Shown here piece by piece: positions 152 through 12,925 of a stretch of 32,000 nucleotides of DNA. This stretch comes from Crocosphaera subtropica ATCC 51142. GTDB taxonomy: Bacteria; Cyanobacteriota; Cyanobacteriia; Cyanobacteriales; Microcystaceae. A program made the position numbers and the translations under genes. The notes beneath the pieces are model-generated. The model saw only the letters and a program-made list of their open reading frames with translations. It did not search any database and was not told the DNA's origin. The stretch lies in NCBI RefSeq assembly GCF_000017845.1, contig NC_010546.1:3270001-3302000 (forward strand), written 5' to 3'. Positions within the stretch are counted from its first letter, which is position 1, and each line of letters begins with the position of its first letter.

Positions 152-181
152 TTGAACTTTTGTCAATTTTATGGCTACAAT
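152..181 (+). promoter_or_regulatory. Putative promoter of the HicA-fusion gene
   Basis: TTGAAC (152-157), an 18-nt spacer, then TACAAT (176-181). It lies 28 nt upstream of the ATG at 209. Confidence 0.35.
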
Positions 182-208: not shown

Positions 209-1915
209 ATGATATTTCGTATCTTAAGAAAACAGTTATCTTATCGACAAGTTGCGGTTATTATTGGCCGATTACTGATTATCGAGTTTGTATTATTGGG
301 TTTTGGTATATTAGCAATCAGTAAACATTATTATACCTATGAACATCATAGTTTTTCTCAATTGCAAAGTATAGAGCATACCAAAGTTTTTCCGACATTA
401 CCGTTAGCTTTATCGTATGCCATAACTAATAATCAAACTGCTCAAATTAATGATATTTTGAATGCTGATTATGGTTTATGGAAATTAGTCATAACAGATC
501 CAGAAGGTAAAAAAGTAATTACTTATTCTCAAAAAAATCTTGAACAAGAAATAGGTTTCATAGACAATAGATTACCAGAAAATCTTAACAGTTATTCTTA
601 TCACTTACTTATTAATCCTTCTTCACCGAACGCTCAAGATTATTATTTTGGAGACAACCAGAGCCTTAATAAGTTAGATGAATTCATCAATTCCAAAATG
701 CTACTGGGTCGAGTTTATTATATTGGAAATATTTCCTATAATTTTCAACAAGAATTATTACAGTGGCTAGGAAATCCTTTTGCTAATAATAGTCGTTTTC
801 CTATTTATAATTTAACAATATTATTATTTATTATTGGCGGATTATTTATTTGGAGTTTTAGTGAGTTTTTCTTAGCGTATCGACTGTTGACCCATAGGGA
901 AAAAGAACAATTATCCCAAAGACTGAAATTGGAAAAGGAATTAGTCAAACAAGAAATTGAGAAAAGACAAATCGCTGATCAAAATCAAGAAATTTTCAAA
1001 AATAAGCAAATTCAATTACAAAAAGAAATAACGATACTTCAAAATAACTTAAAAGAAAAAATTGCTCAAAATTCACGCTTAATTGAAGAGAGAGAAAAAG
1101 AACAAGAAAAATTAGAGGAATTAGAAAATAGTCAAACTCAAAAAATCAAGAATCTTCAAACTATTATTGAAGAATATGAAAAAGAAATTTTAATTTTAGA
1201 AGTGTGGCAAGATAAATCTCAAGAATTAGAAGAAATAAAACAAGAAAAAAATAACTTATTAGTAGAATTATCAGAATACGAAAACTTAGAGAGAGAAAGT
1301 AAAAAACAAATTAAATCCCTTAGACACAAAATTGAACTCTTGATGAATCAAAAACAAGAAGCTGAACAGAAGATAAATGATTTACAGGAGGTTCAATTAT
1401 CTAATAAAACATCTATCCAAGAAAGGGAAGAAATGATCCAACAAGAGTTTGAAAGACAAATTAATTTAGTCAAGTTAGAATCAGAATATGCGTTTGAAGA
1501 AGCGCAAAATATAGAACAAGAAAAAGAAAAAATACTGCTACAAAATAAGGCAATTCGAGAACAACTTAACTCCGAAATTGAAAAAAATAAATATTTAGAA
1601 TTTGCCTTAGAAAGCTATAAAAAAGAAAAAGATGAGATCACTCAAGAATTGACCATCAATAATAATAGTAATTATCCGTCTATACCTACATCTTATTTAA
1701 CTAATATATCGAGCAGAAAAGCCATTAAAGCCTTTCAGAAATTAGGATTTGAAAAAGATAGACATAATGGAGATCATTTTATCCTAAAGAAAACAGAAAC
1801 TAACACCATTACTGTTCCTATTCCTCATCCTCGACAAGAACTCAATCCTCTCACGTTGAAAAATATTTTAATACAAACAAACACTTGTTTAGAGGATTTT
1901 CTAGATAATTTGTAA
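209..1915 (+). CDS. Membrane-anchored coiled-coil protein with C-terminal HicA/YcfA-like mRNA-interferase domain
   Basis: 568-aa ORF. Two hydrophobic segments (aa ~15-37 and ~199-224) bracket a ~160-aa loop. Residues ~228-485 are K/E/Q-rich and heptad-like (coiled coil). The last ~67 aa (nt 1712-1912), RKAIKAFQKLGFEKDRHNGDHFILKK..TVPIPHPRQELNPLTLKNILIQT, fit the HicA toxin pattern (LGF..r..GsHh...tvPvH..kel..gtlk.Il), and the His at the catalytic position is retained. Confidence 0.6.
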   Translation: MIFRILRKQLSYRQVAVIIGRLLIIEFVLLGFGILAISKHYYTYEHHSFSQLQSIEHTKVFPTLPLALSYAITNNQTAQINDILNADYGLWKLVITDPEGKKVITYSQKNLEQEIGFIDNRLPENLNSYSYHLLINPSSPNAQDYYFGDNQSLNKLDEFINSKMLLGRVYYIGNISYNFQQELLQWLGNPFANNSRFPIYNLTILLFIIGGLFIWSFSEFFLAYRLLTHREKEQLSQRLKLEKELVKQEIEKRQIADQNQEIFKNKQIQLQKEITILQNNLKEKIAQNSRLIEEREKEQEKLEELENSQTQKIKNLQTIIEEYEKEILILEVWQDKSQELEEIKQEKNNLLVELSEYENLERESKKQIKSLRHKIELLMNQKQEAEQKINDLQEVQLSNKTSIQEREEMIQQEFERQINLVKLESEYAFEEAQNIEQEKEKILLQNKAIREQLNSEIEKNKYLEFALESYKKEKDEITQELTINNNSNYPSIPTSYLTNISSRKAIKAFQKLGFEKDRHNGDHFILKKTETNTITVPIPHPRQELNPLTLKNILIQTNTCLEDFLDNL

Positions 1916-1932
1916 GGTTATTAGACAATGAT

Positions 1933-3081
1933 TTAACGACCTAGAGTTAATTCTTCTTTTTTGCCTAGAATACCTTGGGGTCGCCAAACCATTAAAATCA
2001 TCAAAATTAAACCAATAATCATAATCCTAAAATAACCAGCTTGACTGGGACTTAAAATGCCTAATTGGGGTAAAAGAAAACGAGTTAATGAATCATAAGC
2101 CCAGAAAATAATCGCTCCTAAAATGGTTCCTGCATTACTTCCTGATCCCCCCAAAACAACAATAATCCAAGTATTAAACGTAATTAAAGGATCAAACTTA
2201 TCAGGATAAATAGTAGTGAGTTGCCAAGCAAAGAAAGCCCCTGCAATTCCTGCGATCGCCCCTCCTAACATAAAAGATTGTAACTTATATAAAAGGACAT
2301 TTTTTCCTAAAGCCCTAGGAATTTCCTCATCTTCTCGAATGGCTTTGAGAATACGTCCCCAGGGTGAATTGACTAAAAATTCTAAACACCCATAAGTGAG
2401 GGCTAAAATCAATAAGACTAATACCATTAAACCAGCTTTATAGGTATAAAAAGATAGGGATGTTATCCCTGTGATATAAACTAATAAAATTAAAGTGGTG
2501 GCAATCACACCCCAAATTATTAAGCTTAAGGGTTTACGAGGTTGATAACTTTTCCCTTGTATTTCTTTATTCTGTTTCCATTCGTCAATCAAACTTTTAT
2601 AAAGAGTCCATTCTGCATAAATTGCCAATATGGTTAAAATAGCAATTAATGATAATTTGATGGGGAAAGTTGCTTCAATATTCAGTGGTAATGGATATTG
2701 TCTTAATCCTAATGCCCCTTTTGTCAACCATTCTTCATTTAATGCCACTAAACGGACTAATTCGGAGACTCCAATGGTAACAATCGCTAGATAATCTTCT
2801 CGAAGACGTAACGTAGACAGTCCAATTAATAGCCCTAAAATAGCTGCTAAAATTGCCCCGGCCAAAACGGCTAAGACAAACGGAACCCCTGTTAACGTTA
2901 ATAAAACGCTGGTATAAGCCCCTAGAGTCATAAAACCAACGACACCGAAGTTAATTAAGCCAGTAAAGCCCCATTGTAAGTTTAACCCTAGGGCAAAAAT
3001 ACCATATACTCCTGCTGAAGTGGTGATGTAGATAATGTAACCGCTAATGCCAATGAGTTGAACTAATAAGGCGTTATCCAT
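1933..3081 (-). CDS. Branched-chain/neutral amino-acid ABC transporter permease (LivM/NatC family)
   Basis: 382-aa polytopic membrane ORF with LivM-type sequence throughout (GFTGLINFGVVGFMTLGAY; LGKNVLLYKLQSFMLGGAIAGIAGAF). No partner ABC genes are adjacent, which matches the dispersed nat genes of cyanobacteria. Confidence 0.8.
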   Translation of the reverse strand: MDNALLVQLIGISGYIIYITTSAGVYGIFALGLNLQWGFTGLINFGVVGFMTLGAYTSVLLTLTGVPFVLAVLAGAILAAILGLLIGLSTLRLREDYLAIVTIGVSELVRLVALNEEWLTKGALGLRQYPLPLNIEATFPIKLSLIAILTILAIYAEWTLYKSLIDEWKQNKEIQGKSYQPRKPLSLIIWGVIATTLILLVYITGITSLSFYTYKAGLMVLVLLILALTYGCLEFLVNSPWGRILKAIREDEEIPRALGKNVLLYKLQSFMLGGAIAGIAGAFFAWQLTTIYPDKFDPLITFNTWIIVVLGGSGSNAGTILGAIIFWAYDSLTRFLLPQLGILSPSQAGYFRIMIIGLILMILMVWRPQGILGKKEELTLGR

Positions 3082-3139: not shown

Positions 3140-5023
3140 CTAGACATCCTCTAAGTCTTCAATAACATAATTTTCTAACTCTATAATCGCTTTTAAAGAA
3201 GCTTGGGCTTTCCCTTCTTTTTTCGTTTGTCCTAATGCTTCTGTTTCGATTAAAATTTCATCTAACCATTGAACTTGACAACAACAGTGCCATTGATTTG
3301 CCATTCTCTGGTAGACATAAGCTGGTTTTTTAAGATTTAACCGTTGTAAAGTAGTATGTAAATGGGCAATGGGACTATTAATAGCTTCTTGGGGAACTGT
3401 TGATAAGTCTAATTCTTCTTCGATGACCACAGAAGAGGTCATTATGATGGTTTCTTCAGTCCAATAATCCTCTAAAGCCGTTTCATCAATCTGTGTGGGA
3501 TCATGCAAGGTATTTTCTAATTTTCCTTGCAACCAATAGCGGTTAGACTGATGTTTGGCTGTTTGTTTATTGCCCGCAATAGAAGGTTTCGTGGTGGTTT
3601 GTCCTTCAAACACTGTCCAAAAACCAAATTGTCCTGAAGGGGTTGTTTTCTCTATGTAATCAACAGTGGTTTGGCCAATGCTAGAAGCAATTTGCAAAAT
3701 TTGAGTGGCTAAGGCTGGTTGTGCTTCTAAATAGTTTAACAACTCATCTTTAATTAAGGTTCGATTATCAGGATTTTGATAATCTCCGAAGACTAAGTAA
3801 TATAAGTCAGAGGGTTTAAGGGTACGATTTTCTAACCTTTGTTTGGCTTCAGGGACTAATTTATCTAATTTGGAAACTTTGAGACTATCTTTCAAGATTT
3901 GGGAAAATTCTTTCTCAGATAGACTAGGAATTGTCTCTTTTTTATTTAAAACATTGACGGTTTTGACCAGACGTTGTTCTCGAAAATGTTCGTTACGCTT
4001 TTCTTTGACTTCCTGTTTTTTCTCGTTAATATGTTTGGCGATCGCTTCTAATTCTTCAACTGAATAAGGGGACTGTTTCTCCTCAATAAACACAGCTTTA
4101 AGAATACGATGATTAACATAGTCAGCCACTCGGCGAATGGGAGAGGTGAAATGGGTATAGGCAGGGAGACAAAGGGCAAAATGACCGATGACGGCCGGTG
4201 AATAAGCGGCCGGGTTTAACCAGCTTTGTAATTTTTGACGTACTAATTCCGGGAGTCCTAACGTGGTTAAGGTTTCAATTAAGATTTTACTTTCAGGGGC
4301 AATGGCTGAGGCGGTATGGTTACGGTATAAAATGGGCAGTTGATGTTCTTCGGCTAAACTGGCTACGGCAGTATTGGCTAACACCATGAATTCTTGGATA
4401 ATTTGTTGAGAATGATATCGGGGAGACTCAATTAATTTTCCTTCTTCATCTAGGGTGACACCGCCGATGGTACTTTGTCCGAATGCCCCTGCTTTTTGCC
4501 GTTTCCAGGCCAGTTTTTGCGCCCAAAGTTCACAATAGCGTAACACTTGAAACAAAGGTTGTGAAGGGTCATGTAAGGTGTGATCGGCTGTTGCGTAGGA
4601 GAATCGTTTGATGCTGGTTAAATGGGTGGACAGGAGTTGGGTTTGTTTAATGTTGGCTGACTCGTCTAAGGTGATGCGAATGGTCAGAGTCCATCGGGGT
4701 TGATCTTCTAAGAGGGATAGTTTATCTTCTGATAATTCACGGGGAAACATGGGTTTGTTGTGTGAAGCAAGGTAGCGAGTTTCCACCTGTGAAAATGCCC
4801 GTTGTTCGAGTTGGGACTTGATAGGAACTAATTCCGTAACATCAGCAATATGGACAGAAATGACCACTCCTGTTTGATTCGGTTCTATCCAAATAGCATC
4901 GTCGAGATCCTTAGAAGTTTCGCTATCAATGGTAAACCCTAAAACGGGTTTCCTATCACCCATCGTTAAGGGTTCTCTGATAAGTTGATCGATTTCACTG
5001 CGGAGAATGGGAGAAGGGGTCAT
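3140..5023 (-). CDS. RNB-domain exoribonuclease (RNase II/R family) lacking CSD/S1, with C-terminal dsRBD-like modules
   Basis: 627-aa ORF. The RNB motifs DLDDAIW (aa ~39-45) and HFTSPIRRVADYVNHRIL are present, and the RNB domain starts ~25 aa from the N-terminus. The C-terminal ~200 aa contain two segments with an alpha-beta3-alpha dsRBD-like pattern (..AGNKQTAKHQSNRYWLQ; ..LGQTKKEGKAQASLKAIIEL). Confidence 0.8.
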   Translation of the reverse strand: MTPSPILRSEIDQLIREPLTMGDRKPVLGFTIDSETSKDLDDAIWIEPNQTGVVISVHIADVTELVPIKSQLEQRAFSQVETRYLASHNKPMFPRELSEDKLSLLEDQPRWTLTIRITLDESANIKQTQLLSTHLTSIKRFSYATADHTLHDPSQPLFQVLRYCELWAQKLAWKRQKAGAFGQSTIGGVTLDEEGKLIESPRYHSQQIIQEFMVLANTAVASLAEEHQLPILYRNHTASAIAPESKILIETLTTLGLPELVRQKLQSWLNPAAYSPAVIGHFALCLPAYTHFTSPIRRVADYVNHRILKAVFIEEKQSPYSVEELEAIAKHINEKKQEVKEKRNEHFREQRLVKTVNVLNKKETIPSLSEKEFSQILKDSLKVSKLDKLVPEAKQRLENRTLKPSDLYYLVFGDYQNPDNRTLIKDELLNYLEAQPALATQILQIASSIGQTTVDYIEKTTPSGQFGFWTVFEGQTTTKPSIAGNKQTAKHQSNRYWLQGKLENTLHDPTQIDETALEDYWTEETIIMTSSVVIEEELDLSTVPQEAINSPIAHLHTTLQRLNLKKPAYVYQRMANQWHCCCQVQWLDEILIETEALGQTKKEGKAQASLKAIIELENYVIEDLEDV

Positions 5024-5385: not shown

Positions 5386-6543
5386 ATGGTTGCAACGCCC
5401 AATAAACAACAAACTCATCCTGTTGAGGGAAGGGATAAAAGCGATCGCGTGGCGGTTTTATTAATGGGTTACGGTGAAGTGGAAAGTTATGAAGATTTTG
5501 CTAATTATAATGAACAGGCTTTAAATTTATTGACGGCTAAATTTGCACCGGTTCCCACTTGGATTTATCCCCCTTTAGCTAAGTTATTAGCGGTTTTTGA
5601 CCTCCATGAATGGCAACATCAACACGACCATTTTATTTCTCCCCATAATCATATTTTTGAACATCAACGGGAATCAATTGAACATAAATTACAAGAAAAA
5701 TGGGGCGATCGCATTCAAGTTTTTAAAGCGTTTAACTTCTGTAAACCGTTTTTACCTGAACAAGTTTTAACGGAAATTAAAGCTCAAGGATTTGATAAAA
5801 TATTAATCTATCCTCTGTTAGTGGTTGACTCTATTTTTACCAGTGGAATTGCCGTTGAACAGGTTAATAATGCCTTAGAATCTTTAACAGAAGGGGACGA
5901 ACATTGGTTAAAAGGGTTACGTTATATTCCTTCATTTTACAACGAACCAGCTTACTTAGATTTAATGGCGAAATTAGTCGAAGACAAAATCAAGAAAGAT
6001 TTAGCGGATAAATACCTTCCTTCTCAAATTGGGATTGTTTTATTAAATCATGGTTGTCCCCACGAAGCGAAAGGATTTACATCAGGAATTGATGAAAGTC
6101 AGATATTATATGAATTGGTCAGAGAACGCTTAATTCATCGTTATCCGTTGATTTCTGTGGGTTGGTTAAACCATCAAACTCCTTTGATTAAATGGACGCA
6201 ACCCAATGCAGAATTAGCAGCTAAAAATCTTATGGAATTAGGGGCAAAAGCCATTATCTTTATGCCCATTGGTTTTGCCACAGAAAATCATGAAACGCTT
6301 TTAGATGTCGAACATATCATTCATGGTTTACATAAGAAATCGTCCGATGTAACTTATGTGCAGATGCCTTGTGTTAATGATGAACCTGAATTTTGTGAAA
6401 TGGCTGCACAATGGGCAGATTCTCACATTGCAGACTTATTATCGGCCGAAGCATTAACGGTTAATCCTTCTTTAGCCGGGGGGAATTTAGACGTTAATCA
6501 TCATCATCATGATCATGGAAATGGTCATCATCATCATCATTAA
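5386..6543 (+). CDS. Ferrochelatase-family (class II chelatase) protein with His-rich insert and His-rich C-terminal tail
   Basis: 385-aa ORF with a GAGG SD ~9 nt upstream. It aligns by eye to HemH landmarks: VLLMGYGEV (N-terminal beta-strand/loop), LLNHGCPHE (the SAHSLP His region) and MPIGFATENHETLLDVE (VGFVADHLEVLYD). The tail reads HHHHDHGNGHHHHH, and an internal tract HEWQHQHDHFISPHNHIFEH is also His-rich. There is no CAB-type C-terminal helix. Confidence 0.65.
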   Translation: MVATPNKQQTHPVEGRDKSDRVAVLLMGYGEVESYEDFANYNEQALNLLTAKFAPVPTWIYPPLAKLLAVFDLHEWQHQHDHFISPHNHIFEHQRESIEHKLQEKWGDRIQVFKAFNFCKPFLPEQVLTEIKAQGFDKILIYPLLVVDSIFTSGIAVEQVNNALESLTEGDEHWLKGLRYIPSFYNEPAYLDLMAKLVEDKIKKDLADKYLPSQIGIVLLNHGCPHEAKGFTSGIDESQILYELVRERLIHRYPLISVGWLNHQTPLIKWTQPNAELAAKNLMELGAKAIIFMPIGFATENHETLLDVEHIIHGLHKKSSDVTYVQMPCVNDEPEFCEMAAQWADSHIADLLSAEALTVNPSLAGGNLDVNHHHHDHGNGHHHHH

Positions 6544-7285: not shown

Positions 7286-7335
7286 ACAGTTATCTGTGTC
7301 GGACAGATGCAGATAACTGTTATTTCTGTTTTTTG
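7286..7335 (+). terminator. Terminator of the relBE-like operon, shared hairpin with convergent PEP-CTERM gene
   Basis: 11-bp perfect stem ACAGTTATCTG (7286-7296) / CAGATAACTGT (7310-7320), extendable with wobble pairs. On the + strand TATTTCTGTTTTTTG follows. The hairpin abuts the stop codon of the minus-strand gene. Confidence 0.6.
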
Positions 7336-8438
7336 CCCTTAGCAGCAACACCGAGTCCACTAACCGCAAGGAGTCCGAGAATGGTTCCAGGTTCGGGTGC
7401 TTTTTGCTTATCAAATGTGACCTTGAGTCCTGCTACATCCCCAGAAGAGCCTTCTCCAACGATAGGATCTCCTGATTGAGTTCTCCCCCAAGGATAATTA
7501 ACTTTTGTCCAGGCACAACCATCCTGACTAGCATCTTCTAAACAATAATCTGGAACCAGTCCTGCTTGGACCAACTTGTTATTAAAGTCTTGTTCAGTTT
7601 CAGCCGTTAGGAACAATAAAGAAGAAGTTCCGAGGGTTGGAATTGTGCCTCCTGGTGTTAGCCATGTCCAAGTATAACCATTCGTAGGAGAAGAGGGTGG
7701 ATTTTGACGTTCTACTTCATCATCCACAACAGTGGTATATAGAACTTGAACAGGTTCAACGGCATTTGGATCTTCAATAATTGGAAGAAAATTCGAGCCT
7801 AATACGTCAGGTATCCAATTACCAGGGCAACCATTATCACCATCAATACAAGGTTGCTCTTGACGCTCTCCATTAGGAGTAGTTGGTTGTCCCAAAGGAT
7901 TATCAAAGATATCTGTACTAGCATTAGCAAATACTGTGTCTGGAATCCAACCAGCAGAACTGTAAGGACTAGGACCAACCCAAGCTGTCCCAGTTTTGCC
8001 TGTTTTTTCTTCTACTGCGACATCAAAAAATGATATTCCTGATTCAGCTTGGGGTAATGGATCAGTGTTATATACCTGGTACAAGAATACATACGGGGCA
8101 TCTAAATCAACTGAGCCATCTTGATTAGTTGGCAGAATAGGAATTCCCCATTCTGCTGATAGTTCTGCAGCCCAGTCACTGGTATCAGGCCGATAGACAG
8201 CAAAACTAACTGTACTATCGCACAATGGACATTGTTCTCCAGGCGGATCACCAACAGGAGGATTAGGTTCTACATTCAAAGGATCATTAGGTGGATTACT
8301 TGGATCAGGTGCTGCAAACACACTATAACCTTGATCAATAAAGGAACCAGCTTGAGCATTGCTTTGAATACCGACTGCCCCTACTACACCAGCGACACCT
8401 GCGATCGCCAATGTTTTCCATAACTTGGGTTGACTCAT
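7320..8438 (-). CDS. Secreted PEP-CTERM-anchored protein of unknown function
   Basis: 372-aa ORF. The N-terminal signal peptide is MSQPKLWKTLAIAGVAGVVGAVGIQSNAQA. The C-terminus, PEPGTILGLLAVSGLGVAAKGKKQK, has the PEP motif, a TM helix and a basic tail. The body is Pro/Asp/Asn-rich. Confidence 0.75.
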   Translation of the reverse strand: MSQPKLWKTLAIAGVAGVVGAVGIQSNAQAGSFIDQGYSVFAAPDPSNPPNDPLNVEPNPPVGDPPGEQCPLCDSTVSFAVYRPDTSDWAAELSAEWGIPILPTNQDGSVDLDAPYVFLYQVYNTDPLPQAESGISFFDVAVEEKTGKTGTAWVGPSPYSSAGWIPDTVFANASTDIFDNPLGQPTTPNGERQEQPCIDGDNGCPGNWIPDVLGSNFLPIIEDPNAVEPVQVLYTTVVDDEVERQNPPSSPTNGYTWTWLTPGGTIPTLGTSSLLFLTAETEQDFNNKLVQAGLVPDYCLEDASQDGCAWTKVNYPWGRTQSGDPIVGEGSSGDVAGLKVTFDKQKAPEPGTILGLLAVSGLGVAAKGKKQK

Positions 8439-10670: not shown

Positions 10671-11006
10671 TTAGAATGCACGGTTATTGGGCTTATGAAC
10701 GATGAAACTCATGGTTTGACACTGTTTGATGTTGTCAAAACCAATCACACGAATATAAGCGTTAGGATACTCAGAACGACATTCCCGTACTTCAGCTAAT
10801 ACTTCTTGAGCAGAACTAGCACCGAATAAAGGTAACTTCCACATGGTCCAGAAGTGAGTTTCAGGTAAGGGGTTTTCTTCAAATTCAACCCCAGGAATCA
10901 TGCCTTGATCCAATACATATTGAACTTGACGAACAATTTGTTGATCGGTTAAAGGGGGTAAATAAGAAAGGGTTTCGTAACGACGCTCTTTAGGTAATGT
11001 TTTCAT
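10671..11006 (-). CDS. rbcS: RuBisCO small subunit
   Basis: 111-aa ORF with [44 protein letters not shown], the canonical RbcS sequence. It is the last gene of the rbcLXS operon. Confidence 0.95.
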
Positions 11007-11029
11007 TGTTGGTAGATTCCTATCTCAAG

Positions 11030-11428
11030 TTAATCACAATTAGGGTTCGAGTCATCATTCTCTGACTCAGAAGAAGTTGAGGACACGGAGGAAGAACGGG
11101 TAAGCCTCTCCAATAGCTGACGACGGTGTTCCATATTTGCCTGACTAATGCCGTGGCGCACCATCTGGGGCATAAATTCCATGACCTCTGAGGCTAGATA
11201 TTCTCGTACTTTGAGAATACGCATGACTAGCTCCTTATCTTCTCCCATTAACCCCTCAATAAAGCTTTCTCCCTTTTGGATATTATGAGAAGCAGTATAT
11301 TGCCTCAGCCATATGGCTTGCTTGGGGTTGGTTTCCGATAGTTGGTCAAGAATAATACGAACCGCTTGATAAGTCAGGTAATTTTGTATAACCTCTGCAG
11401 TGTCGTTAGCTATTTTTTTGGGATACAT
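11030..11428 (-). CDS. rbcX: RuBisCO assembly chaperone RbcX
   Basis: 132-aa ORF lying between rbcL and rbcS. The N-terminal TAEVIQNYLTYQAVRIILDQL..NP..AIWL matches conserved RbcX helices. Confidence 0.9.
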   Translation of the reverse strand: MYPKKIANDTAEVIQNYLTYQAVRIILDQLSETNPKQAIWLRQYTASHNIQKGESFIEGLMGEDKELVMRILKVREYLASEVMEFMPQMVRHGISQANMEHRRQLLERLTRSSSVSSTSSESENDDSNPNCD

Positions 11429-11509
11429 AAATGCCTACCTGTCCCTCCTCGGACACAGTTGTTAGTTTTTAGTCTGTTATATTCCTAAAAACTAACAATG
11501 ATCCCAAAA

Positions 11510-12925
11510 TTAGAGTGTATCCATTGCCTCAAACTCGAATGTAATTTCTTTCCAGAGTTCGCAAGCAGCAGCTAACTCAGGACTCCACTTACAAGCTTCG
11601 CGGATAACGTCATTACCTTCACGAGCTAAGTTACGGCCTTCGTTACGAGCTTGGATACAAGCTTCAAGAGCCACACGGTTAGCGGTTGCACCAGGAGCGT
11701 TACCCCAGGGGTGTCCTAAGGTACCACCACCGAACTGTAAGCAAGAGTCGTCGCCGAAGATTTCTACTAAGGCGGGCATATGCCATACATGGATACCACC
11801 AGACGCAACGGGCATGGTTCCAGGCATAGAAGCGTAGTCTTGGGTGAAGAAAATACCACGAGAGCGATCTTCTTCAACGTAGTCTTCACGCATGAGGTCA
11901 ACAAACCCCATAGTGATGCCTCTTTCCCCTTCTAATTTACCGACAACGGTTCCAGAGTGGAGGTGGTCACCACCAGAAAGACGTAAACACTTGGCTAAAA
12001 CGCGGAAGTGAATACCATGATTCTTCTGACGGTCAATTACGGCGTGCATCGCACGGTGGATGTGCAGTAAGATACCATTGTCACGACAGAACTTGGCTAA
12101 GGTGGTGTTAGCGGTGAAACCACCGGTTAAGAAGTCGTGCATAACGATAGGAGTGCCAATTTCTTTGGCGAACTCAGCCCGTTTCATCATTTCTTCGCAA
12201 GTACCGGCGGTGACGTTGAGGTAGTGACCTTTAACTTCGTTGGTTTCAGCTTGGGCTTTTTCAATCGCTTCTTGTACAAATAAGAAGCGATCGCGCCAAC
12301 GCATGAAGGGTTGAGAGTTGATGTTTTCGTCGTCTTTGGTGAAGTCTAAACCACCCCGTAAACATTCGTAAACGGCACGTCCGTAGTTCTTAGCGGATAG
12401 ACCGAGCTTGGGCTTAATGGTACAACCTAATAAGGGACGACCATATTTGTTTAATTTATCCCGTTCCACGGTGATCCCATGAGGAGGCCCTTGGAAGGTT
12501 TTGATTAAAGCAACGGGGAAACGGATGTCTTCTAAACGTAACGCCCGTAATGCTTTGAACCCGAAGACGTTACCTACTAATGAGGTTAAAACGTTGGTTA
12601 CAGATCCTTCTTCAAATAAATCTAAAGGATAGGCAATGAAACAGAAATACTGGTTGTCTTCGTTAGGTACGGGTTCGATGTCATAACAACGACCTTTGTA
12701 ACGATCTAAGTCGGTTAAGTTGTCGGTCCAAACAGTTGTCCAGGTTCCGGTAGAAGATTCTGCTGCAACGGCTGCACCGGCTTCTTCAGGAGGAACACCC
12801 GGTTGGGGGGTCATACGGAAGCACGCCAGTAGATCGGTATCTTTCGGAGTGTAGTCGGGGGTGTAATAGGTTAAGCGGTAGTCCTGAACACCGGCATTAA
12901 ACCCTGATTTTGTGGCCTGTGCCAT
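11510..12925 (-). CDS. rbcL: RuBisCO large subunit, form IB
   Basis: 471-aa ORF with the unmistakable RbcL sequence ([14 protein letters not shown]; [23 protein letters not shown]; [18 protein letters not shown]). A GGAGG SD lies ~9 nt upstream. Confidence 0.99.

Follow-up and report, generated by a model that had tools for sequence, protein, structure and literature searches.

A HicA-type domain at the end of a predicted two-pass membrane protein of Crocosphaera subtropica and its apparent place in a modular cyanobacterial family

Introduction

HicA toxins in their canonical form are free proteins of ~60–85 amino acids (aa) encoded beside the antitoxin gene hicB. A survey by Gerdes (2024, mBio, PMC10865869) described 14 genetic contexts of HicA, among them Class 14 or 'SMC-HicA', in which an SMC domain is combined with a C-terminal HicA domain; these proteins have a body that is mostly coiled coil and a well-predicted 'globular domain', and some members contain NERD domains (PMC10865869). 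Coiled-coil HicA fusions without HicB have thus already been reported (Gerdes 2024, PMC10865869), and such a fusion is not entirely new in itself. Here we analyse a gene of the cyanobacterium Crocosphaera subtropica ATCC 51142 that encodes a HicA-type domain at the end of a 568-aa predicted membrane protein, with no hicB nearby. It lies in a stretch of 32,000 nucleotides (nt) (assembly GCF_000017845.1, contig NC_010546.1, positions 3,270,001 to 3,302,000 of the forward strand), referred to below as the window.

The gene resembles Class 14 in being monocistronic and in combining a long coiled coil with a HicA domain of double-stranded RNA-binding domain (dsRBD) type at the C-terminus and no HicB, and, in a comparison made by description only, the 'globular domain' and NERD link of that class echo the sensor domain and the NERD-bearing paralogues presented below. 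It differs in that its product has no SMC ATPase head and begins instead with a predicted extracytoplasmic module carried by two transmembrane segments (TMs). Confinement of RNA cleavage to the membrane surface is a property of both IRE1, the eukaryotic endoplasmic reticulum stress sensor, which combines a lumenal sensor with a TM and with a cytosolic RNase that oligomerisation activates, and the bacterial RNase Y, in which a coiled coil and an RNA-cleaving domain accompany a TM anchor. For the protein described here both are functional analogies only, with no sequence or fold relationship. Control of a toxin domain within a single polypeptide would be a feature shared with CapRel(SJ46) and with the fused HicAB/HicBA proteins of Classes 11–13 (PMC10865869); those proteins have a recognisable antitoxin domain, whereas Pfam detects none in the window protein.

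Results and discussion

Layout of the gene product

The open reading frame (ORF) at 209–1915 (+) runs from an ATG for 568 aa without an internal stop in the ORF listing of the window. Its features are the following.

209–1915 (+): whole gene, encoding a two-pass membrane/coiled-coil/HicA protein; monocistronic, with ftrV divergent upstream and a permease gene convergent downstream.
209–247 (+): short basic N-terminus, aa 1–13 (R4, R7, K8, R13), placed in the cytoplasm by the positive-inside rule.
248–322 (+): TM1, aa ~14–38, containing R21; from hydropathy and an AlphaFold2 (AF2) helix at 12–60.
323–796 (+): predicted extracytoplasmic alpha/beta domain, aa ~39–196, the fastest-evolving part; from the profile search and AF2.
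797–880 (+): TM2, aa ~197–224, with E219 at its cytoplasmic end; from hydropathy, AF2 and conservation.
881–1639 (+): cytoplasmic heptad coiled coil, aa 225–477 (253 aa); from the lack of Pro and Gly, a/d occupancy and an AF2 helix.
1640–1708 (+): linker, aa 478–500, with the conserved motif IPxSxLxNIS directly before HicA; from alignments.
1709–1912 (+): HicA (dsRBD-like) putative RNase domain, aa 501–568, the best-conserved part of the protein; from Pfam and a PDB profile match.
1775–1777 (+): His523 codon; this putatively catalytic residue of the G-D-H motif does not vary among 14 HicA-type sequences and aligns with the Gly-x-His position of solved HicAs.

Kyte–Doolittle analysis gave exactly two hydrophobic segments (aa ~15–37 and ~199–223), and since basic residues precede TM1 and follow TM2, the protein is predicted to be oriented N-in, loop-out, C-in. 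Residues 225–477 contain no proline and no glycine, have a high content of E, K, L, Q and I, and form long constant-register runs in which 61% of heptad a/d positions are hydrophobic, versus 32% of positions overall. In the full-length AF2 model, which was built from 17 close orthologues, has a pLDDT of 57 and was used for secondary structure only, residues 198–477 form one helix. The order of TM1, ~160-aa loop, TM2, coiled coil and HicA that had been proposed in the first-pass annotation was thus recovered by hydropathy, heptad analysis, AF2 and Pfam. The coiled coil is probably a parallel dimer, and the whole appears to be a receptor-like protein of the inner membrane, although it could equally reside in the thylakoid membrane.

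Beyond HicA_toxin, a Pfam scan of the window protein returned nothing. The sole NCBIfam match was the SMC model TIGR02169 (E=0.17), and this match, together with the classification of proteins with a coiled coil and a C-terminal HicA as SMC fusions (Gerdes 2024, PMC10865869), is what might suggest that the protein is SMC-like and acts on DNA, which is how Class 14 was interpreted, with Wadjet and Lamassu as the analogues. We consider this extremely improbable: the match reaches 9.5 bits against a cutoff of 729 and is confined to the coiled coil (aa 230–484), Pfam finds no SMC_N, AAA or ATPase head, and the N-terminus is TM–loop–TM. For want of the ATPase head the 'SMC' label fails for the window protein, and an SMC identity was ruled out. 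The published description of Class 14 nevertheless fits the family defined below suspiciously well, the two being matched by description only. PDB matches of the family profile (myosin, tropomyosin, SMC arms) were all to coiled-coil proteins and were treated as a matter of composition, not of homology. One database copy of the Arthrospira HicA-type protein, the orthologue from Arthrospira platensis str. Paraca (P0175), is annotated as 'chromosome partitioning protein ParA'; this label and the matches to SMC, tropomyosin and crescentin exemplify how the coiled coil drives misannotation of the family.

The HicA domain

The first-pass annotation had described the C-terminus as HicA-like and proposed a search against PF07927, which proved significant: HicA_toxin matches aa 503–557 of the full protein at E=3.2e-14, its 53.2 bits exceeding the gathering cutoff of 27, and the C-terminal 74 aa alone at E=8e-16. 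A profile of 14 HicA-type sequences matched 1whz_A in the PDB at E=3e-10 and the Burkholderia pseudomallei HicA structures 4c26/6g26 at ~5e-4, the value for 4c26_A being 4e-4, with weaker matches to 9svk, 5yrz and 4p78; a single-sequence phmmer search of the PDB with the HicA domain gave no match. The likeness to canonical HicAs (1whz, 4c26/6g26, 5yrz, 4p78) extends over the C-terminal 68 aa and includes the Gly-x-His motif and, in a prediction of low confidence, the alpha-beta-beta-beta-alpha order. In the AF2 model the region reads helix 502–511, strands 514–517, 525–528 and 535–537, and helix 547–557, an alpha-beta-beta-beta-alpha succession over 502–557, at a local pLDDT of only 43–70 within a full-length model of low confidence.

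The histidine of a GDH motif had also been reported as retained, and indeed G521-D522-H523 is encoded at nt 1769–1777; all 14 HicA-type members in the alignment, which come from several genera, carry the motif without exception as G-[SD]-H. His523 aligns with the Gly-x-His position of solved HicAs, at which 4c26 and 6g26 read Gly-Ser-Ala. We take this residue to be the HicA catalytic histidine (His24 in B. pseudomallei), and 4c26 and 6g26 to be the inactive H24A form of that protein. With both the profile match and the Gly-x-His histidine present, the domain is, by these sequence criteria, a member of the HicA family (PF07927), and it looks like a catalytically intact endoribonuclease domain. 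The serine of the IPxSxLxNIS linker motif (S15 of alignment A5) is likewise invariant across the 14 members.

Conservation of the fusion and absence of hicB

Sixteen homologues were found in Crocosphaera/Cyanothece at 60–80% identity, 13 of them 567–568 aa long with the same layout, and the gene is present in 12 species-level genomes of this group (one genome per species), among them those of C. watsonii WH 8501 and of C. chwakensis CCY0110. More distant HicA-type members, named HicA or YcfA, have similar lengths in Arthrospira/Limnospira (570 aa), Laspinema (568), Microcoleus (567) and Sodalinema/Phormidium (589); overall the range is 411–758 aa, with four clusters at 567–572 aa. The probability that the fusion is an assembly, frameshift or annotation artefact joining two genes is next to nil, and this explanation is refuted by the same open frame, without internal stops, in independent assemblies of 12 species and several genera; the window protein itself is identical in two independent read-set assemblies. 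That the fusion is genuine and conserved is thereby established.

Mean pairwise identity among 15 full-length orthologues is 89% for HicA, 80–83% for the TMs, 75% for the coiled coil and 55% for the loop. On these alignments the RNase-like end appears to be under the strongest constraint and the loop to evolve fastest, and the difference between HicA (89%) and loop (55%) indicates selection on HicA function. One could alternatively view the protein as a structural one, like the coiled-coil-rich or cytoskeletal proteins of cyanobacteria, whose HicA-like end is a degenerate, non-catalytic knob that binds protein or RNA, given that the coiled coil makes up nearly half of it and yields weak matches to crescentin, tropomyosin and SMC proteins. 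We hold this to be improbable, as HicA is the best-conserved part, its G-x-H histidine is invariant across genera, and paralogues bear intact enzymatic outputs (see below).

No HicB accompanies the gene. Pfam detects no HicB family in the window protein even at E≤1, and tblastn with four cyanobacterial HicBs, taken from the supplementary table of Gerdes 2024 (PMC10865869), gave no match in the window or in 23 related loci (L001–L023), which include Arthrospira (L017/L018), Laspinema (L019) and L022; the range searched was about 5–6 kb in most loci, from five genera, and shorter where contigs end. As a positive control, the canonical class-2 HicA of C. chwakensis recovered the window HicA domain by tblastn at 34% identity. 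These results bear out the earlier statement that no HicB lies at the locus. Downstream, the claim that a convergent permease gene is only 17 nt away was correct (ORF ends at 1915 and 1933), and this gap leaves no room for a downstream hicB. Upstream, where a hicB beyond the edge of the window had been envisaged as a finding that would speak against an antitoxin-less protein, homologous contigs show instead a divergent ftrV (ferredoxin-thioredoxin reductase variable chain, 78 aa), which is the neighbour in all 12 species loci, with the permease downstream in most. The contexts of the HicA-type genes differ among L017/L018, L019 and L022, the gene standing alone or with unrelated neighbours where readable.

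The possibility that the protein is an ordinary HicA with an N-terminal extension, neutralised in trans by a HicB encoded elsewhere, has some basis in the canonical hicAB/hicBA pairs of Crocosphaera genomes (Table S1, PMC10865869) and in the 34% identity between its HicA domain and the class-2 HicA EAZ94169 of C. chwakensis. Identity of only 34% to a canonical HicA makes cross-neutralisation unlikely, however, and with no hicB within about 5–6 kb in most loci of five genera, and the same antitoxin-less arrangement recurring for the YoeB and Gp49 outputs described below, we give this explanation little credence. Both the adjacent antitoxin and the small toxin are missing here, and the gene is no HicAB module; it differs from canonical hicA also in being vertically inherited among housekeeping genes.

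An N-terminal module shared with sensor kinases

With a profile of aa 1–245, for which 14 orthologues were used, an exhaustive search of 1.84 billion cluster representatives was made; word-index searches with the N-terminal 240 aa or with HicA alone gave fragments only, and the exhaustive profile search was needed. The profile matched 198 clusters (50% identity) at E≤1e-3 and 140 at E≤1e-10, its homologues scoring from E=1e-47 to 1e-10 over positions ~18–240, with the window protein as seed. Nearly all matches are proteins of 450–800 aa in which the match is N-terminal and spans TM1, loop and TM2, and all clusters for which an organism is named come from cyanobacteria (Arthrospira/Limnospira, Sodalinema/Phormidium, Laspinema, Microcoleus, Cylindrospermopsis, Nostoc, Floridaenema, Crocosphaera). 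No Pfam model covers the module region in 31 family members scanned, the window protein included, and NCBIfam has no match on the module of the window protein.

From an alignment of 105 module sequences, AF2 gave a model with pLDDT 88 and pTM 0.78, in which the long TM1 helix (12–60) leads into a pair of helices, then a sheet of four strands interspersed with helices, a further helix at 179–188 and the TM2 helix (197–244). T96 and R168 are invariant in the 105 sequences; R21 at the cytoplasmic end of TM1 (codon 269–271) occurs in 95 of them, and E219 at the cytoplasmic end of TM2 (codon 863–865) in more than 90%, as do Y44, Q53, P65, S69, L134, P137, G167, Y170, W186 and Y200. The window protein carries R21, Y44, Q53, T96, R168, Y170, W186 and E219. 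Judging from their positions, R21 and E219 might be joined by a salt bridge at the membrane interface and in this way contribute to signalling. A T-D-C-x5-8-C cysteine pair is found in the loop of 86 of the 105 members, which is consistent with an oxidising, extracytoplasmic location.

A Foldseek search of the PDB with the module model returned no match at E≤0.001, the best being the WalK-YycH model 9a5d_A (E=0.028, TM 0.31), followed by GAF, PAS and Cache ligand-binding domains at E>0.1; an assignment of the sensor domain to the PAS/PDC/Cache fold was dropped, there being no significant match. The TM–loop–TM module would be the input of kinases with an H-box and HATPase_c, so that the term 'sensor-like', which at first pass described a resemblance in topology, now has a basis in homology. 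With two-TM sensor kinases such as WalK, PhoQ and DcuS the window protein shares TM1, an alpha/beta loop, TM2 and a cytoplasmic helix, the same module is used by 17 cluster-level kinase paralogues, and the best Foldseek match is a WalK model. It differs from them in that the fold similarity of its loop domain is not significant (E=0.028), in that the output is an RNase domain and not a DHp with a catalytic ATPase domain, and in a coiled coil of ~250 versus ~70 residues.

Exchangeable outputs

The last 110 residues of family members were clustered, and representatives were scanned with Pfam and PADLOC. The following outputs were distinguished.

NERD nuclease: 30 clusters; Pfam E=1e-12 to 1e-14.
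DUF2325-like: 20 clusters; below the Pfam cutoff.
HATPase_c: 17 clusters; Pfam E up to 2e-13.
HicA: 10 clusters and the Crocosphaera cluster; local HicA profile and C-terminal clustering, six named HicA/YcfA (NCBI/JGI).
Unnamed output group: 11 clusters; matches the C-termini of PADLOC HEC-07/NsnC.
Second unnamed output group: 5 clusters; no match.
Gp49/HigB-like toxin: 3 clusters; E=1e-17.
CARF7-associated DUF2103-like: 3 clusters; PADLOC E=2.5e-44.
Card1-like PD-(D/E)xK: 2 clusters; PADLOC CARF_PDDEXK E=1e-9.
DUF2293: 2 clusters; Pfam, marginally above cutoff.
YoeB toxin: 1 cluster; E=1.4e-26.

On this evidence the window protein is no one-off and represents, within a large and modular family of cyanobacteria, the branch that has HicA as its output. 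The HATPase_c group appears to consist of real sensor kinases: 16 of its 17 members have an H-box HD[ILMV]xKAPLL ~70–100 residues past TM2, and at locus L020 a response-regulator gene directly follows the kinase gene. In four further clusters, P0106 (977 aa) and P0134 (990 aa) along with P0130 and P0135, which are shorter, the module domain stands behind a single TM at the very C-terminal end of an nSTAND1 protein; P0106, which alone among the full-length nSTAND1 members was scanned, shows a CHAT domain. The extreme C-terminus is the sensor position in CHAT-nSTAND1-like conflict-system proteins (PMC10907252).

HicA-type modules are mutually nearest in 10 of 11 cases, and over all outputs 61 of 106 nearest neighbours share the output. 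Modules with different outputs are up to 54–57% identical, and it follows that the sensor has been conserved while its outputs were swapped again and again. The combination of a constant sensor with swappable nuclease or toxin outputs recalls the CARF effectors that belong to type III CRISPR systems (Card1, Csx1, CARF-RelE, CARF-DUF2103), and the C-termini of some paralogues match PADLOC CARF_PDDEXK and CARF7-DUF2103, with E down to 2.5e-44. Here, however, the sensor is predicted to be extracytoplasmic and is flanked by membrane segments instead of being a cytoplasmic binder of cyclic oligoadenylate, and there is no CRISPR context. For the window protein itself none of the families of PADLOC-DB 2.0 matched at E≤0.01. 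No recognisable antitoxin adjoins the YoeB-type and Gp49-type members that were sampled. A relationship to HicA of the unnamed group 'G6' (LExLGF...GxH.K) was considered and could not be established (hhalign probability 8%, E=0.004).

Large proteins that join a Phosphonate-bd domain (PhnD-like, periplasmic binding) to a nuclease or kinase tend to adjoin or neighbour members of the sensor family, with NERD at L020:1849–3834, SNase at L021:7073–8929 and Pkinase at L019:1902–3980. These domain combinations suggest a second, parallel class of cyanobacterial extracytoplasmic-sensor/nuclease receptors, possibly working together with the sensor-module family. Downstream of the YoeB-type member, at L024:4561–5375 (-), there is a convergent trio of small ORFs of 94, 72 and 109 aa, ending in one for a DUF4258 protein; the trio may be an unrelated toxin–antitoxin-like cassette.

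Proposed mechanism

We lean, with moderate confidence, towards the reading that the transmembrane sensor controls the HicA RNase in cis and so replaces an antitoxin. According to this model, a periplasmic or thylakoid-lumenal cue would be perceived by the loop domain and, in the manner of the kinase paralogues, relayed through TM2 and the coiled-coil dimer. The tethered RNase would then be switched on or off by a change in how the two HicA domains are arranged or clustered, or alternatively by exposure or cleavage of the conserved linker. RNA would then be cut at or near the membrane, and the scaffold together with membrane confinement would stand in for HicB.

Several observations weigh against such control. 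For a conformational signal to pass, the coiled coil is very long, with 250 residues as against only ~70 in the kinase paralogues. The Crocosphaera orthologues have lost the loop cysteine pair that is typical of the family. The sensor domain has no significant structural relative, and 'PAS/Cache-like' is only a hint from the modelled fold; the full-length AF2 model, at its pLDDT, is uninformative on how HicA packs. PADLOC matches in ten members, the window protein included, fall on the coiled coil or C-termini, with none over the N-terminal module. Finally, the stable housekeeping neighbourhood (ftrV, permease, rbcLXS) and vertical inheritance across Crocosphaera are atypical of defence or toxin genes.

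Another explanation is that the protein is a constitutive housekeeping RNase or RNA binder tethered to the membrane in the manner of RNase Y, where it would process mRNAs or localise them, with a loop that serves for anchoring or for binding a partner and not for signalling. The syntenic housekeeping context is stable in all 12 Crocosphaera species, HicA-type members of distant cyanobacteria are of similar length (567–572 aa in four clusters, 411–758 aa overall), the HicA domain is under strong purifying selection, and the HicA fold is dsRBD-like (Gerdes 2024, PMC10865869). We nevertheless regard a constitutive role as unlikely, since the same module feeds histidine kinases and takes the sensor position in STAND NTPases, and since the outputs are mostly toxins and nucleases that have been swapped among close relatives, which would be odd for a housekeeping RNase; retention of the putative catalytic histidine argues in addition against a pure RNA binder.

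If the HicA domain is indeed controlled by the sensor, its role could be that of a stress-induced translation brake or of abortive infection. Conflict or programmed arrest is suggested by the repertoire of toxins and nucleases and by the CHAT-nSTAND1 link; a regulatory role after domestication is suggested by the gene's stable housekeeping context and by its vertical inheritance in Crocosphaera. More tentatively, the family as a whole may represent a new class of cyanobacterial one-component transmembrane receptors in which an extracytoplasmic sensor gates RNases and nucleases (HicA, YoeB, HigB-like, NERD, PD-(D/E)xK) through a coiled coil, an extension that we consider possible but not probable. 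Were it true, neither antitoxins nor second messengers would be needed, signalling would be of an IRE1 style in bacteria, from a cue outside to RNA or DNA cleavage inside, and the kinase paralogues would report the same cue transcriptionally.

Genomic surroundings

Two further features flank the gene.

1916–1932 (no strand): gap of 17 nt to the convergent BPD_transp_2 gene, between the ORF ends at 1915 and 1933.
152–181 (+): promoter-like site TTGAAC-18-TACAAT, a weak candidate only, 28 nt upstream of the ATG.

The promoter scan as a whole was at chance level (8 sites, versus 10.9 expected in shuffles), and so were the results of the terminator scan. The convergent permease ORF at 1933–3081 (-) is a BPD_transp_2 protein of the branched-chain amino-acid type (Pfam E=8e-57). 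In the wider window Pfam identifies an RNB exoribonuclease, a ferrochelatase-like protein, a prepilin peptidase and rbcL-rbcX-rbcS, which are housekeeping genes and no defence island. The RuBisCO operon rbcL-rbcX-rbcS, at 10671–12925 (-) with a prepilin peptidase and a MerR-type regulator upstream, marks the context as that of the core chromosome and not of an island. The HIP1 palindrome GCGATCGC, a cyanobacterial genome signature, occurs 15 times in the window against 0.11 expected (e.g. at 2252–2259 and 4038–4045), as fits a cyanobacterial chromosome.

Two genes from the HicA protein, at 3140–5023 (-), lies the gene of a 627-aa RNB-domain exoribonuclease of the RNase II/R type (E=7e-64), with a C-terminal extension of ~315 aa that ends in a sub-threshold match to dsrm (dsRBD; E=9e-4, 20 bits versus a cutoff of 23). 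This gene was not found in the sequence fetched for the loci of other Crocosphaera species, which makes a functional link to the HicA protein doubtful. The ferrochelatase-family protein at 5386–6543 (+) (E=2e-40, with a weak CbiX match) has a histidine-rich C-terminal tail, ...NHHHHDHGNGHHHHH, the composition of which suggests a metal-binding chelatase variant. A 372-aa ORF at 7320–8438 (-) has as its sole Pfam match a weak C-terminal PEP-CTERM sorting motif (E=0.01).

Conclusions

In the literature that we searched, including Gerdes 2024, we found no description of the membrane topology, of the sensor module, of its use by kinases and STAND proteins, or of YoeB, HigB-like and nuclease outputs, and the receptor nature of the protein and the modular sensor family appear to be undescribed. 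The analysis defines a widespread putative sensor domain of cyanobacteria that lies outside current domain databases, and it corrects 'SMC-HicA', which is likely a mislabel. What triggers toxin–antitoxin RNases, and to what purpose, is an open question, and the window protein is a rare case of a toxin-type RNase physically wired to a candidate sensor. Because the toxin domain is hard-wired to the sensor without an antitoxin, trigger and effector would reside in one polypeptide, which makes the question directly testable, and the kinase paralogues with the same sensor are possible reporters for the discovery of its ligand or signal. Our findings suggest that membrane receptors encoded by stable genes of vertical descent can domesticate toxin domains as their regulated outputs.

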